Source: a virus. Taken from it: DNA of 64,000 bases. Where the stretch lies: IMG/VR virus record IMGVR_UViG_3300037264_007554, positions 31,494 through 95,493 of that record; one strand, written 5' to 3'. The position numbers and the translations under genes are program-made. Below the pieces are notes generated by a model. The model saw only the letters and a list, made by a program, of their open reading frames with translations. It was not told the DNA's origin and did not search any database. This document shows, one piece after another, positions 2,712-36,496 of this stretch; position 1 is the stretch's first letter; the number at the start of each line of letters is the position of its first letter.

Positions 2712-3209
2712 TTAGATACCGTTCGGATCGCGGTCTTCGTCCTTCGGCTCCATCAGATCAAAATGCACAACGAAAAGACTGCTACCCGACTCGACGTTGG
2801 GAGTCAGAAGCCTGATGGTGGGCCCATAACTCGGATCTGGGAAAGCCGTGGCACTGATGACAGGGCCGCCTGACTCGGTCGAATCAAGATTGTTGATGAT
2901 GCTCCGCGAGAGAAGAAAGCCGGGGATGTTCGACACGTTGTTGTAGTGGTAGATCGAAAGTCGCCAGTTGAGCCGCGCGCGCGGAACAAACGCGGGGTTC
3001 GCCACACCATTCAGGATCGCCGGGTTCGGAAACACAATCGGACGGCCGCGCCACTCGTAATACGCACCCAACGCACTCACAGTCAACGGAGTTACCGCAA
3101 CGCCACCTGAACCGACAGGAGCCGAACGCGAGCCCGGCGCATTACGCACGGCGATGTCGAGATCGTTGCTTTCGGTCGGCATCTGGCAGATGTACGTTCG
3201 TGAAATCAT
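2712..3209 (-). CDS. Hypothetical beta-rich virion protein
   Basis: Virion operon context; taatTTGGTT..TAGGAT upstream. Confidence 0.5.
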   Translation of the reverse strand: MISRTYICQMPTESNDLDIAVRNAPGSRSAPVGSGGVAVTPLTVSALGAYYEWRGRPIVFPNPAILNGVANPAFVPRARLNWRLSIYHYNNVSNIPGFLLSRSIINNLDSTESGGPVISATAFPDPSYGPTIRLLTPNVESGSSLFVVHFDLMEPKDEDRDPNGI

Positions 3210-26963: not shown

Positions 26964-27335
26964 ATGGACCGACGAGATCTTCCTCCCGATTTGTACATGG
27001 CGAATCTCTTGAAGGACGCCCAGAAGCAGCGCGTCCCTCTGATCGCGATCTACTCCACGCTCGAAAACGAAAAGCTGATGCTCAAGGTCGTCGCGAACTG
27101 CGGCGAAGCCATCATGAAGCAACTCTGGGGTCAGGTCTTCCCGCTCACCGACGCGGCCATCGAGACCGCGGCGAAAGCGCTCGCGGCGACGGAAGGACAA
27201 AACTGGGACGGCCTCGACGACGGCCCCCGCGCGGCCTTCCTCTCCATCGCACGGACGGCCGTGACTGCGGCCTACCGCGCCCACGCTCCGAAACTGCCCG
27301 CGGCAGAGCCTACACCGATCATCAAGCCTGCGTGA
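26964..27335 (+). CDS. Hypothetical protein
   Basis: RBS AAGGAG. Confidence 0.6.
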   Translation: MDRRDLPPDLYMANLLKDAQKQRVPLIAIYSTLENEKLMLKVVANCGEAIMKQLWGQVFPLTDAAIETAAKALAATEGQNWDGLDDGPRAAFLSIARTAVTAAYRAHAPKLPAAEPTPIIKPA

Positions 27336-28210
27336 TAGACGGTAGCGAAGATAATAAAGTGAAACGGATTGCTCTTGGTGAAGACATTCAATTATTGGAG
27401 GGGGATTCGCGAACAATTCTAACTACCATACCGGGCGAGACTTTTCAGTGTTGTGTTTCAAGCCCGCCATATTGGGGTCTCAGGGATTACAGCGTTGACG
27501 GCCAGATCGGTGCGGAGGCCGCGATAGGCGACTATCTCAGCGCCCTGGTAGCGATTTTCCGTGAAGTACGCCGCACCCTGCGTCGCGACGGAATGCTATG
27601 GCTTAACGTTGGCGATTCGTTCACAAGCGGAGATCGCGGCTGGCGAGCGCCAGATAAGAAAAACCGGGCGCGAGCCATGACCTATCGGCCCCCGACACCG
27701 GAAGGGCTCAAGCCAAAGGATCTGATCGGGGTGCCATGGCGACTGGCGCTGGCACTCCAACAGGATGGCTGGTTTCTCCGCTCAGACATCATCTGGAACA
27801 AACCAAACTGCCAACCGGAATCCGTCAAAGACCGGCCGACTCGTTCCCATGAATACATTTTCCTCATGAGCAAATCTGAATCGTACTTTTATGACCATGC
27901 GGCCATCGTCGAGCCTGCGGCCAACGGACAGACAAAGAATCGACGAACGGTTTGGAACATCAACACCAATGGTTTCCATGGCGCACACTTCGCCGTGTTT
28001 CCCCCCGAATTGGTGCGCCTCTGCATCCTCGCAGGATCAAAACCCGGCGACCTTGTGCTCGATCCTTTTTTCGGGTCCGGTACGGTAGGGTTAGTTTGCC
28101 GCGAACAGAGACGACGATGCGTTGGGATCGAGCTGAATCCTGAATACGTAGAGATCGCGAAAAAACGGATAGCCGGATTGATCATGCAACCCGGCGGACC
28201 CACTACCTGA
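27332..28210 (+). CDS. DNA N4/N6 methyltransferase (beta class)
   Basis: SSPPYW, HFAVFP, VLDPFFGSGT. Confidence 0.92.
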   Translation: MIDGSEDNKVKRIALGEDIQLLEGDSRTILTTIPGETFQCCVSSPPYWGLRDYSVDGQIGAEAAIGDYLSALVAIFREVRRTLRRDGMLWLNVGDSFTSGDRGWRAPDKKNRARAMTYRPPTPEGLKPKDLIGVPWRLALALQQDGWFLRSDIIWNKPNCQPESVKDRPTRSHEYIFLMSKSESYFYDHAAIVEPAANGQTKNRRTVWNINTNGFHGAHFAVFPPELVRLCILAGSKPGDLVLDPFFGSGTVGLVCREQRRRCVGIELNPEYVEIAKKRIAGLIMQPGGPTT

Positions 28211-31467: not shown

Positions 31468-33861
31468 ATGCTGATCAGTTATTTTCCGAACATTCAACAG
31501 ACCCTCCCCGATCGCCAGGACAAAACCTGGGACGAATTCGCCGCAGATCTAGAGAGCCGCGGCCACGACTTCACGTACGCACGCAAGCTCGACGTGCCTG
31601 CGATTTCTCCGGCTGAGTACGCTCCAGGCGTGCACCGGCTCAAGAGCAAGGTCTTGGCTGTCCACTTCGGGTTCCTCGACTGGGACAAACTCACCGACGA
31701 GCAGTTCGCGGCCGCGAACGCCAAGCTGCAAGGCTACGAGCACATTTTCTACACGACGTGGTCGCATGCGGCGAGCGCGCCGCGCCTGTGCGGCCGCGTG
31801 GCCGTACGTTTCAGCAGGCCGGTGCTGGCGTCGGAGTGGGACGTTTTTTGGCCGCGGATGAACGCGCTGTTCGGGAACGTCGGCGATCCGGCCTGCAAGG
31901 ATCCAAGCCGGGTCTACTTCATCCCCGCGGCCCCGGCCGGAACCGAGGGCGACGCCATCCTTCACCATGAAACCGGCATGGCGATCGACGTGGACGCGCT
32001 GCTTGCGGCCCCTGCACAGACGACGGAGGCCGGTACAGAGAGCATCGCCCGGCGAGATGTAGAAGAACTCGCGAAGCGGCTCAAGCGCCGTCACTCTGCG
32101 CACCATCAGAAGATGGGTGGCGCTCTGACGCAGGTGTTGGAGGGCGAGCCTTTTGCTGACGAAGGTGAGCGGGATGAGGTGATCTTCCAGGTCACGTCGA
32201 TCTTGGTCGAAGCCTGGCCGAAGGCGAACGCGCACACGCTGGCGAATTTCTTCGCGCCTTCGATCGGCAAGATGTCGAAGATATCGACCGGCTGTCCTAC
32301 AGTAGCGGACGTCGAGGCGAAGATCCGGCGGCACCAAGAGTCTTTTCAACAAGAGCAGGCCGCGAAAGATCAGGAACAGTTCGAGAAGCGATCGGCGACG
32401 ATCCGCCAGGCATTCGCGAACGGACGATCGCACCCATACACAGATGACGAGCTGAATCAGTTCGCGGAGAGCGCAGGGTGTTCACGGGAAGCCTTCAGGC
32501 GTCGGTGGATAATTCAAAAAGCCAAGAGCTACTACCTGTATTTCAACGGCAGCTACCGGCCGCCGTTTTCAGATTCGGACATGGCCGTCGCCGCTCTCCG
32601 TGATCTGGCGCCCGCGCACTCGGCTGGCGTCGATCTCTGGAAAGTCTCCGCGCGTGGAGATCTGACTCTGAAATCGGCGCCTGAGTTGATGCAGAGCTAC
32701 GGCACGGTCGCGAGCGAGATCGTCGTGGACTTGACGGCCCAGGTGGCGAAGTTCGACGACAAGACGCAGACGTTCTACGAAGCGCCGTGTCCTCTGAGGA
32801 AGCTGAGACCGACGTACGATTGGCAGGTAGACGAATGGCTGCGCTGGCTCGCCGGGCAGCAGCACTACGAGACACTGTGTGACTGGATCGCGGTGGTCAC
32901 GAATCTGAAAGAGTCCTGCGCGGCCGTGTACCTCGACGGCGTGCCGGGCGCCGGGAAGACGCTGCTGGCCGACGGCCTGGCGCGGCTCTGGACCGAGGAA
33001 AAGCCGACGCCCTGCGAGGAAGCCATGAGCAGCTTCAACCAGTCGCTGTCTCGGTGTCCTCTCGTGCTCGCGGATGAAACGCTTCCAAAAGATTTTCGCG
33101 GCCGGGTGCGCACGGCGGATCTACGCCAGTTCATCCAGGCACGCGCGCGGCCGCTCTCGCGGAAGTTCTTGCCGAACGCGTCGATGCGAGGATCGATCAG
33201 GCTCATCATCACGGCGAACAACGAGGAGTTGCTCGTCAGCGGCGAAGCGCTTTCATCCAACGACATCCAGGCCATCGTCGACCGGGTGATCTACATCTAC
33301 TGTCCGAAGAACGCGGCCAGATACTTGAAGACCGTAGACACGCGCAGCTTCGTGACCGGCGATCGAATCGCGAAGCACGCGCTGTGGCTGGCGGAGTACA
33401 GAGCTGTGAAGGAGGGGAAGCGGTTCTTGGTCGAAGGCTCGGACTCGTCGCTGCACCGGACGTTAACGACATCGACGGGACTTCGATCTGCCGTCTGCAA
33501 CTGGTTGGTCGCGTTCTTGCTCTCGCCGAAGAATGCCGAGACCACGACGAAAAAGCTGGTTCGGGTACATGAGGGGCAACTGCTCGCGACTTCGCGCGGC
33601 CTCGCGCAGTGGTGGGATCTCTACAAGACCAACGAGCCATCACCGGCGGCTGGGCGGGTGAGCCAGGCGCTGGCCGGGCTGAGTAAAGGCCCCAAGATGC
33701 AGCTAATAGACGGGGAGGACAGAAGAACGCACTACTGGGTGATCGATCCGGAGAATCTCGTTTCCTGGGCCGACAGGAATGGGTACGCGACCGGCAACGT
33801 GATCTTGGAGGCGTTGATAGCTGCGGCGGAAAAAACTGAAACTACGGCGGACCTGAACTGA
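31468..33861 (+). CDS. Primase-helicase (N-terminal primase-like, C-terminal SF3/D5-like ATPase)
   Basis: LDWD, YTTWSH, DPACKDPSRVYF; GVPGAGKT, LADE, ITAN. Confidence 0.8.
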   Translation: MLISYFPNIQQTLPDRQDKTWDEFAADLESRGHDFTYARKLDVPAISPAEYAPGVHRLKSKVLAVHFGFLDWDKLTDEQFAAANAKLQGYEHIFYTTWSHAASAPRLCGRVAVRFSRPVLASEWDVFWPRMNALFGNVGDPACKDPSRVYFIPAAPAGTEGDAILHHETGMAIDVDALLAAPAQTTEAGTESIARRDVEELAKRLKRRHSAHHQKMGGALTQVLEGEPFADEGERDEVIFQVTSILVEAWPKANAHTLANFFAPSIGKMSKISTGCPTVADVEAKIRRHQESFQQEQAAKDQEQFEKRSATIRQAFANGRSHPYTDDELNQFAESAGCSREAFRRRWIIQKAKSYYLYFNGSYRPPFSDSDMAVAALRDLAPAHSAGVDLWKVSARGDLTLKSAPELMQSYGTVASEIVVDLTAQVAKFDDKTQTFYEAPCPLRKLRPTYDWQVDEWLRWLAGQQHYETLCDWIAVVTNLKESCAAVYLDGVPGAGKTLLADGLARLWTEEKPTPCEEAMSSFNQSLSRCPLVLADETLPKDFRGRVRTADLRQFIQARARPLSRKFLPNASMRGSIRLIITANNEELLVSGEALSSNDIQAIVDRVIYIYCPKNAARYLKTVDTRSFVTGDRIAKHALWLAEYRAVKEGKRFLVEGSDSSLHRTLTTSTGLRSAVCNWLVAFLLSPKNAETTTKKLVRVHEGQLLATSRGLAQWWDLYKTNEPSPAAGRVSQALAGLSKGPKMQLIDGEDRRTHYWVIDPENLVSWADRNGYATGNVILEALIAAAEKTETTADLN

Positions 33862-35777
33862 TGTGGACGGATCACGCTTTCTTGCACCTGGGGGACTGCC
33901 TCGAAGCGCTGGCGACGCTGCCGGAGAGCAGCATCGACGCGGTCGTGACGGACCCGCCGTACCACCTGACACAAGTCTCGCGTGGCGGTTCTCCTCGCAA
34001 GAACGATCCCGAGAGCCCGTTCGGCCGACACCACATCGGCGAGCGTGGGTTCATGGGCCGGGTCTGGGACGGCGGCGATGTCGCGTTCCGGCCGGAGACC
34101 TGGGCCGAGATCTTGCGCGTGGCGAAGCCCGGCGCGCACTTGCTGGCCTTCGGTGGGACACGGACCTGGCACCGGTTGGCGTGTGCGATCGAAGACGCAG
34201 GCTGGGAAATCCGTGACACGATCATGTGGGTCTACGGTACGGGGTTTCCGAAGTCGCTGAACGTGCAGCAGGCAATCAATAAAGCGGCGCGGGGAGTTCC
34301 GCAGGGTGTGGCCGATCCAAAAAGCCCGAATCATGGAAAATTCAAGGGAGGGTGTTCGGTTGAATCGCCAAATGGGCGAGGGTTTGGTGCAGGGGCCGGA
34401 GCATTTATGCAAGAGCAGGGCGTGCGGCGTGGAGATGATGAGGGGCCATGGAACGGTTGGGGCACGGCGCTCAAACCGGCAGTCGAATATATCGTGTGCG
34501 CAACAAAACCTCTTGATTTGCAGGGTTTGTGTGAAAGACTGGCTTTTAAGATAGGGGACAGTGTATGCCAGTTGAGATTGTGTGTGAAGGCTGCGGTAAA
34601 CGATTCTTCGTCAAACCAAAAAGAGTACGACGCGGGTGCAGATTTTGCTCGCTGGCGTGTCGTGCCTCCGTTCAGTACACCGGCAGATTTGTTCGCAGCG
34701 ATGGATACGTTGCGGTGCGTGTCGGATCTTCCTTTGAGCTTGAGCACCGCGCTCTCATGGCTCGATCTCTTGGGCGCCCTCTCAGAAATTGGGAGCACGT
34801 TCACCACAGAAACGAAAACAAGTCTGATAACAGACTTGGAAATCTTGAACTCATCTTCCGCAGCGATCACACCAGAATCCATCATCGCGGCATCGACCAT
34901 TCAACGTGGCATAGGATCAAATGCCTTACTTGCAGCAAGTATTTTCAACGTCGTATCAGCCAAACTCGTGAACATCCTCGGTGCTTCTGCTCCAGGTCTT
35001 GCTACATCGTTGGACGGGCATCCGGGCTTACGCCCTAACTGGCTTCCGATCATTCTGGCTCGCAAGCCGCCGGAAGGAACGGTCGCGGCGAACGTCCTGA
35101 AGCACGGGACAGGTGGTATCAACATCGACGGATGCAGAATCGAAACGAATGAGAATTTGAACGGAGGAGCTTACAGCGGCGGAATAAGACCCACTTCACT
35201 TCCCGGAGATGCGCGTCCGGCAGCTACTAGAAGCTATGCAAAACGTCGTGATCCAGAAGATTTCAAGCAGCCACCGGGCCGCTGGCCCGCGAATCTAGTC
35301 CACGACGGTAGCGATGAAGTGCTGGCGGCGTTTCCGGTGACGACGAGCGGATTGCTCTCACCGCATCATAAGCGAGGTGAGCAGGTCAACGTGTTTGGAA
35401 AAAGCAATGGTGCTTCACCTTCGAGAGAATTTGGAAACGATGTCGGCTCTGCGGCGCGGTTCTTCTACTGTGCGAAAGCAAGCAAGTCAGACCGTGGTGA
35501 AGGGAACAACCATCCGACGGTCAAGCCCCAGGCGCTCATGCGCTGGCTCGTCCGATTGGTGACGCCGCCCGGCGGCATGGTGCTCGACCCGTTCATGGGT
35601 TCGGGCACGACCGGCGTCGCCGCGCTGCTCGAAAAGTTAGACTTCATGGGCATCGAAAAAGAAGACGACGCGTTTCACATTTCAGAAAAACGCATCTCGC
35701 GAGCATTTTCCGGTGGACAGCCGGAGGTGACTCGTGCAAATACTGACAACGAAGCGGCCCCTCCTGGGTCGGGTTAG
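33861..35777 (+). CDS. DNA methyltransferase (beta class) with ~185-aa in-frame insertion
   Basis: TDPPY, GFPKS, WGTALKPA, RFFYCAKAS, HPTVKP, VLDPFMGSGTT. Confidence 0.85.
   Translation: MWTDHAFLHLGDCLEALATLPESSIDAVVTDPPYHLTQVSRGGSPRKNDPESPFGRHHIGERGFMGRVWDGGDVAFRPETWAEILRVAKPGAHLLAFGGTRTWHRLACAIEDAGWEIRDTIMWVYGTGFPKSLNVQQAINKAARGVPQGVADPKSPNHGKFKGGCSVESPNGRGFGAGAGAFMQEQGVRRGDDEGPWNGWGTALKPAVEYIVCATKPLDLQGLCERLAFKIGDSVCQLRLCVKAAVNDSSSNQKEYDAGADFARWRVVPPFSTPADLFAAMDTLRCVSDLPLSLSTALSWLDLLGALSEIGSTFTTETKTSLITDLEILNSSSAAITPESIIAASTIQRGIGSNALLAASIFNVVSAKLVNILGASAPGLATSLDGHPGLRPNWLPIILARKPPEGTVAANVLKHGTGGINIDGCRIETNENLNGGAYSGGIRPTSLPGDARPAATRSYAKRRDPEDFKQPPGRWPANLVHDGSDEVLAAFPVTTSGLLSPHHKRGEQVNVFGKSNGASPSREFGNDVGSAARFFYCAKASKSDRGEGNNHPTVKPQALMRWLVRLVTPPGGMVLDPFMGSGTTGVAALLEKLDFMGIEKEDDAFHISEKRISRAFSGGQPEVTRANTDNEAAPPGSG
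34565..35038 (+). mobile_element. HNH homing endonuclease nested in an alternative frame of the methylase gene
   Basis: CxxC, FCSxxC, EHR..LGRPL..EHVHHRNENKSDNRLGNLEL; own RBS AGGGGA. Confidence 0.85.
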
Positions 35778-35788
35778 CGAGTGAAGAG

Positions 35789-36496
35789 TTGAGCGAAAAA
35801 GCTGCTGTTCCTTTCATATACGGGCCCCAGTCTCGGGATACTGAGGACGATCGCGTGTGGTTCGCCGATCATCCCGGGAGGGATTGGAGAATTAGGGACA
35901 TAGGGTCGGGTGAAATGGAGTGGCTCTCTCTGACAACGCATCAAGGACAAGTTCCTGATCAGGTTCTTATGTATGAGCTGCTAAAAGCGCTCGCAGAAAA
36001 AAGTCAAAAGAGTTTCGAGATCAGGATGTGCGTTTTTCAAATCAAGCCGGGGCATCGCTACAGAGTTCCAATTTTAGGGCCGCGAGGCTGCTCTGACGAC
36101 GCGAAAATTATTTTTCAAGAAGAGTCCTTCGCTCGGCCTGTTTCTGCGAAAGAAAAATTGGAGGAATTGAGGAGAAGGTGGGCAGAAGTGGGAGAAGAAG
36201 CAGGGGTCTTGTCTGCAGATCCTCACGAGCATTGCGCGCAGTGTTCTACGAGTTTCAAAAACGGAGACATCACTATAGCTTTCGAGGGGCCAGTTCATCT
36301 TTGCGAAAAATGCGGCGTAGCTAGAGGGGGATCTCCGATAGGTTTGAGCGTGTTCGTTTTAGGTAGTAGCCGAGAAGACGCGAACGAAAATTTAGTTTAT
36401 TGGCTACAGAAAAGCGCTCGCCGGATACCGTCTGTAGCGAAGCAATTCGGAATGACGCTCAGGAAAACTAATACGGACAGGCAAGGCAGCAGTTGA
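35789..36496 (+). CDS. Hypothetical protein, lower GC
   Basis: 235-aa ORF with two CxxC. Confidence 0.55.
   Translation: MSEKAAVPFIYGPQSRDTEDDRVWFADHPGRDWRIRDIGSGEMEWLSLTTHQGQVPDQVLMYELLKALAEKSQKSFEIRMCVFQIKPGHRYRVPILGPRGCSDDAKIIFQEESFARPVSAKEKLEELRRRWAEVGEEAGVLSADPHEHCAQCSTSFKNGDITIAFEGPVHLCEKCGVARGGSPIGLSVFVLGSSREDANENLVYWLQKSARRIPSVAKQFGMTLRKTNTDRQGSS

Follow-up and report, generated by a model that had tools for sequence, protein, structure and literature searches.

The question raised by this locus is how the DNA methylase gene of a phage can hold a second protein-coding gene, for an HNH endonuclease, in the middle of a conserved motif and in a different reading frame, and apparently still be read from end to end. 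The window, by which we mean the whole 64,000-nt stretch of DNA that was analysed, is part of an IMG/VR virus record of 95,493 bp that is estimated to be 99% complete. The reading that we favour, and in which we place considerable confidence, is that the insert would be a 'hidden HNH' homing element of the ShiLan type, one that ribosomes read through and that is never removed. The ShiLan domain was reportedly first published by Gosselin et al. in 2023 (Genes 14:288).

An HNH gene nested in a methylase motif

The initial annotation described a duplicated methylase motif around an insert of about 560 nt that contains an HNH gene in another frame with its own ribosome-binding site. This description is accurate and the interrupted-motif insert is confirmed as genuine (Table 1). 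The insert comprises 558 nt (186 codons), which is the distance between the two copies of the motif KPAxEPIxxARKP, and its boundary is ambiguous within the 13-residue repeat. At least 60 of the 120 best protein homologues carry an insert at exactly the same site, with a length of 163-222 residues (mostly 192-208), and in these homologues the first copy reads ALKP[AS]xE... and the second ...PIxxARKPLxGTVA. Insert-free methylases from 80 viral-contig loci, which are fairly distant relatives and served for the motif consensus only, have the uninterrupted form GTALKPAxEPIxxARKPLxGTVA in 82 of 82 motif instances, and the Glu is invariant among them. The same Glu is present in every copy 1 listed and is gone from about half of the copy 2 sequences.

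The host gene matches PF01555 (N6_N4_Mtase; Pfam E 5e-28), and an alignment with homologues indicates that the catalytic and SAM-binding motifs of the interrupted methylase are all intact. It is part of a replication module, with a gene for a DUF5906 protein upstream and, on the downstream side, genes for a family A DNA polymerase, a helicase and two PD-(D/E)XK nucleases. The same phage genome also has a second, shorter PF01555 methylase, which is uninterrupted.

We assign the nested ORF to the HNH nucleases because it matches PF13392 (HNH_3; Pfam E 1e-6) and because the H-N-H and Cys residues are invariant among its relatives (H80/H81, N93, H102 and two sets of four cysteines). The core is flanked on either side by a Cys4 zinc ribbon, one at each end of the protein. 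A predicted model of the protein (pLDDT 85) has a ββα core between two zinc ribbons, and its best match in the PDB according to Foldseek is I-HmuI, a weak match (E 0.11, probability 0.87). The relative frame of the nuclease is constant: the methylase is read in the HNH frame +1 in each of the 13 loci collected first and likewise in all 96 nested loci. The HNH gene ends within the first codons of motif copy 2.

An antisense ORF overlaps the HNH gene. Its best family match (TrmB, E 0.08) is not credible, and the corresponding ORFs at other loci range in length from 17 to 263 codons and occupy differing frames. The antisense ORF probably arises as a side effect of the two constraints that act on the sense strand.

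Table 1. Coordinates of the interrupted methylase gene, its insert and other features of the window
Feature	Position	Strand	Basis or remarks
N4/N6 DNA methyltransferase (PF01555), 638 aa	33861..35777	+	ORF and Pfam; frame runs through insert
DPPY motif	33951-33962	+	Near methylase N-terminus
Motif copy 1	34473..34511	+	KPAVEYIVCATKP; insert 5' end; methylase residues K205-P217; Glu kept
Linker from copy 1 to HNH start	34512..34564	+	Weakly conserved in methylase frame
HNH-frame stop upstream of HNH gene	34547-34549		TAA
Shine-Dalgarno site	34553-34558		AGGGGA, 6 nt 5' of HNH ATG
HNH homing-endonuclease gene (predicted), 157 aa	34565..35038	+	ORF and Pfam; frame -1 relative to methylase
HNH core H80..N93..H102	34802-34870	+	
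HNH stop codon	35036-35038		TAA; TAA-C at 35036-35039
Motif copy 2	35031..35069	+	RPNWLPIILARKP; methylase residues R391-P403; Leu in place of Glu
SAM-binding FMGSGTTG (FxGSG type)	35592-35615	+	Near methylase C-terminus
Second PF01555 methylase	27332-28210	+	Uninterrupted; 292 aa, E 3e-52
Antisense ORF overlapping HNH gene	34331-34900	-	189 aa

Stop codons and selection in the methylase frame

The initial annotation further held that the methylase frame lacks a stop across about 185 codons and that such openness is unlikely by chance. The first statement is borne out by an open frame of 645 codons; by comparison, 10 stops fall within the HNH span in the third frame. The second statement depends on the null model when the window is considered alone. 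A null built from codon usage in the flanking methylase predicts 4.7 methylase-frame stops over the HNH span and P(0) = 0.0006, whereas permuting the synonymous codons of the HNH gene itself gives P(0) = 0.16. The open frame of the window is by itself only suggestive, and it is the comparison across homologous insertions, a check that the initial annotation had proposed, that is decisive.

We drew the sample of homologues from viral, metagenome and genome contigs by means of the HNH protein, and hence independently of methylase ORF calling, because a search by methylase ORF length would favour open frames. The resulting sample for counting stops contains 96 loci with an HNH gene nested at the site, which form 67 clusters (below 85% HNH identity). 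Across the HNH gene, 66 of these 67 clusters are free of methylase-frame stops. When the genes' own synonymous codons are permuted, 106 methylase-frame stops are expected over these clusters, which share ancestry and are not strictly independent but have wobble positions near saturation (0.45 identity), and a single stop is observed; the third frame has 724. This synonymous-permutation null errs on the conservative side, as the constraint has already left its mark on codon choice. The null from flanking-methylase codon usage, applied to other loci as well, predicts 3-12 stops per gene (P(0) 0.0002-0.02). In more distant HNH relatives that reside outside this methylase, the corresponding frame is interrupted by 3.8 stops per 157 codons. 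The purging of stops is real, specific to the host frame and old.

The sole lineage with a methylase-frame stop across the HNH gene (L122:471-950) is represented by a 1-kb contig, and its stop may stem from decay of this copy or from an error in sequencing.

Codon alignments of ten lineages reveal which of the frames is selected as protein. Over the HNH span, the HNH frame has a mean amino acid identity of 0.58, compared with 0.33 for the methylase frame and 0.32 for the third frame; at the three HNH codon positions, nucleotide identity amounts to 0.65/0.71/0.45. The methylase-frame reading of this span is kept open, and its amino acid sequence is unconstrained. Certain blocks of the methylase frame that seem conserved (TFTTET, TDLKxLNS and ICQL) are shadows of the nuclease sequences HVHHRNE, DNRLGNLE and the MPV start. 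Outside the HNH span, the methylase-frame identity of copy 1 is 0.70 (0.75/0.79/0.39 for nucleotides by codon position), that of copy 2 together with the next 20 codons is 0.60 (0.69/0.74/0.37), and that of the linker between copy 1 and the HNH start is 0.21 (0.42/0.44/0.36). To judge by these profiles, copy 1 and the segment just 3' of the insert are under purifying selection in the insert-bearing lineages.

These comparisons bear directly on the proposal that the insert, as read in the methylase frame, forms a domain with a function of its own, for instance a helical module involved in regulating or retargeting the methylase, in which case the DNA would be dual coding in the true sense. AlphaFold2 models six helices in residues 220-372 with pLDDT values up to about 80, and an alignment of the full-length proteins looks conserved in this region. 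However, identity in the methylase frame is at the level of the third, non-coding frame, the blocks that look conserved map to HNH motifs, and substitutions follow HNH codon positions only. Pfam finds no match in the methylase-frame reading of the insert, and the authors who examined the host-frame reading of the corresponding insert in phage ShiLan likewise found no hits (Arsenault, Gosselin & Gogarten 2025, Genes 16:178, PMC11855218). We regard a functional domain as improbable.

Is the insert removed, bypassed or read through?

The presence of an HNH gene invites a different explanation for the insert, since such genes often reside in group I introns. An unrecognised self-splicing or host-dependent intron would remove the insert from the mRNA and make the open frame incidental, and the resemblance of the 5' end of the insert to the sequence that follows the site might be taken as a sign of this. 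Yet a search of Rfam yields no group I or group II intron in positions 33800-35800 with permissive filters, or in 20 homologous loci at the gathering score. Only 92 nt of the insert are outside the HNH ORF, which leaves no space for a ribozyme core because 39 of them are copy 1, and these 39 are under protein-coding selection in the methylase frame. Furthermore, a spliced insert needs no stop-free host frame, yet nearly every lineage has one. We consider an intron very unlikely. The preference of the initial annotation for dual coding rather than splicing survives in part: the frame is kept open and no intron is found, but the host-frame sequence is unselected.

The initial annotation noticed no intein motifs, and we concur, given that Pfam reports no Hint or intein family in the methylase or insert ORFs. 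The junctions were also considered as intein junctions and rejected on their residues, which are variable, with no Cys, Ser or Thr at the N-terminal junction and no conserved His-Asn plus nucleophile at the C-terminal one. On the basis of the conserved open frame, and because there are no known ribozyme or intein signatures, we infer that splicing is absent.

The initial annotation also entertained ribosomal bypass of the insert, which is disfavoured by the same observations on stops. If ribosomes were to hop over the insert as they do in T4 gene 60, the duplicated motif could in principle provide matched take-off and landing sites; alternatively, the two halves of the methylase might be made as separate polypeptides, and split methylase-like arrangements do exist, for example in L011, where the HNH gene and the C-terminal half adjoin a different methylase. 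Under either scheme the selection against stops would vanish, yet stops are purged, and the window has neither a stop after copy 1 nor a start codon at copy 2. The bypass in T4 gene 60 spans 50 nt, and a hop of 558 nt would be more than 10 times this known distance. Both schemes are, in our estimation, extremely unlikely.

Hardly more credible is the idea that the methylase is already dead and that its open frame reflects a mere recent insertion, for although the gene is probably dispensable, given the second, uninterrupted methylase of the same family, its motifs are intact, its flanking codons are under purifying selection where the HNH genes have diverged to 45-70% identity, and insertions so old would have gathered stops.

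We therefore return to the ShiLan-type element that is read through. According to this proposal, the HNH protein would be made from the methylase mRNA by ribosomes that initiate internally in the ordinary way, and would cut insert-free alleles at the DNA that codes for the motif, for which the candidate target is the DNA encoding GTALKPAWEPIILARKP. Repair would then copy the insert into the cut allele. The element would be removed from neither RNA nor protein, such that ribosomes engaged on the methylase would read through the HNH gene in its +1 frame. The predicted product is one 638-aa chain with an unselected filler loop of roughly 175 residues, and this filler, together with a partly decayed copy 2, would lead into the C-terminal half of the methylase.

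How an element of this kind might persist in a strand motif that appears essential is suggested by a model of the full-length methylase, which was made by AlphaFold2 from 82 aligned sequences and is of moderate confidence (mean pLDDT 67). Copy 1 is modelled as a core β-strand (residues 208-215; pLDDT of the block 73-88) and copy 2 is not modelled as a strand. The filler between them is modelled as the helices noted above, with pLDDT 40-81. In the modelled fold, copy 1, which is carried by the element, probably takes the place of the interrupted strand. We offer, as a tentative idea that may prove wrong somewhat more readily than right, that the element survives in an essential strand motif by bringing a working spare in the form of copy 1, while copy 2 decays at its Glu and the stretch between them is unselected, stop-free filler. 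If true, this would be a third strategy for homing endonuclease genes inside coding sequence, besides introns and inteins. It would also be general, since the open-frame rule extends to a second HNH gene, to an antisense ORF and to inserts in unrelated hosts, which are described below.

Relation to the ShiLan element and wider distribution

The arrangement that the initial annotation put forward had already been published for mycobacteriophage ShiLan (PMC11855218). The gp65 methylase of that phage has a 202-aa in-frame insert without stops, and an HNH gene that ends in TAAC is hidden there in another frame (PMC11855218). The first 11 residues of the ShiLan insert resemble the 11 residues after the site, a resemblance at the 5' end in which the authors saw a possible sign of an intron; they could detect neither an intron nor an intein, and AlphaFold suggested a protruding loop (PMC11855218).

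That the element of the window is a distant member of this published 'hidden HNH' type is well supported by sequence comparisons. Its HNH protein shares 45% identity (E 1e-23) with ORFs nested in the methylase genes of ShiLan, OwlsT2W, Pollywog, Bipolar, MISSy, Filuzino and others, and 59% with an ORF in the methylase gene of Cylindrospermopsis phage Cr-LKS3. The methylase of the window is 35-39% identical to ShiLan-type methylases over 90-97% of its length; for those of Pollywog, Bipolar and ShiLan, tblastn gives 35-37% over 95-97%. The two systems have in common the PF01555 host family, the ALKPxxEPIxxARKP site and the repetition, by the first 11-13 residues of the insert, of those that follow the site. 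They also share the frame of the HNH gene relative to its host, the TAAC ending, the stop-free host frame, the lack of an intron or intein signal, and I-HmuI as the best structural match, although this match is weak here. They differ in that the HNH proteins have diverged to the identity given above, and in that the host of the present element is an uncultivated 95-kb phage rather than an actinophage.

A further difference concerns the start of the nuclease. For ShiLan, no ribosome-binding site was found, and leaderless initiation from an upstream GTG was proposed (PMC11855218). The HNH gene of the window starts with ATG behind a clear Shine-Dalgarno site, and a counterpart of the upstream start is barred because the HNH-frame TAA just before this site makes a longer N-terminus impossible. 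Among 65 lineages with a usable start, 55 have a Shine-Dalgarno-like motif 5' of the HNH start, a count that takes in weak GGA or GGGG matches and spacings up to 14 nt; about 45 lineages have a core site (GGAG, GGAGG, AGGAG or GAGG) 4-8 nt before the start. The start codon is ATG in 57 of 66. In the ShiLan locus (L004), GGAGG is located 4 nt before a GTG at 3001 that aligns with the starts of all other lineages, and the GTG proposed in the ShiLan paper is at 2923, inside copy 1. From these signals, internal initiation on the methylase mRNA seems sufficient for production of the nuclease and leaderless translation seems unneeded. A conserved Shine-Dalgarno site and start codon thus suggest a simpler answer to the question of how the nuclease is translated.

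Two better-known classes of mobile elements also invite comparison. The putative nuclease resembles the free-standing and intron-encoded HNH homing endonucleases of the I-HmuI and I-TevIII type, to judge from its ββα-metal core with zinc modules and from its apparent target, a conserved motif in a gene for phage DNA metabolism. Unlike these, the HNH gene of the window is neither associated with an intron nor intergenic, but is embedded in a coding sequence whose translation would continue across it in a different frame. With inteins the element shares the in-frame occupation of a conserved host-protein motif and an apparently patchy distribution, but its nuclease is in another frame and it has no Hint or splicing blocks and no junction residues.

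On a tree of 97 methylases from which the insert was removed (a quick FastTree calculation with no branch supports), the insert state changes at least 14 times, compared with 29.9 changes (range 23-36) for shuffled labels. This number fits repeated gain and loss of the element.

Relative to the ShiLan papers, what is new here is the breadth of the distribution, the statistics of stop purging, the unselected filler, the selected spare motif and the conserved Shine-Dalgarno start. Those papers lack quantitative evidence that stops in the host frame are purged while the host-frame sequence drifts. The arrangement is not an oddity of mycobacteriophages, but an old and widespread lifestyle with representatives in dozens of phage lineages from metagenomes, in a cyanophage and in the genomes of proteobacteria and actinobacteria. 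There is also a practical consequence, namely that gene callers miss nested nucleases of this type: the records of cultured phages that we examined have a single 'DNA methylase' annotation, and the nested nuclease is annotated in none of them.

Several loci from the survey depart from the usual arrangement. In L008, a second nested nuclease ORF (L008:3310-3894, +; 194 aa, HNH_3 plus NUMOD3) is present in the C-terminal half of the methylase in the other relative frame, and the methylase frame is open through both inserts as an 855-aa ORF. In L005, a 251-aa antisense ORF with Cys-rich N-terminal repeats (L005:1197-1952, -) falls between DPPY and GFMGK in the N-terminal region of the methylase. 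Pfam assigns no family to this ORF, and the methylase frame (873 aa) is open across it. An AT-rich phage contig (L011:1477-3869) lacks the N-terminal PF01555 half, and its HNH gene and C-terminal methylase half come after an ORF resembling C5-cytosine methyltransferases; no stop interrupts the frame across the HNH gene, although 2.6-12 would be expected. In the related locus L138, the N-terminal methylase half is broken into three ORFs. Finally, distant relatives of the HNH protein (38-60% identity) are encoded in the +2 frame of long, uninterrupted ORFs (575-598 aa) at L013:1318-3045, L186:754-2550 and L017:2-1738. The hosts in L013 and L186 have no Pfam family, and that in L017 is another PF01555 methylase.
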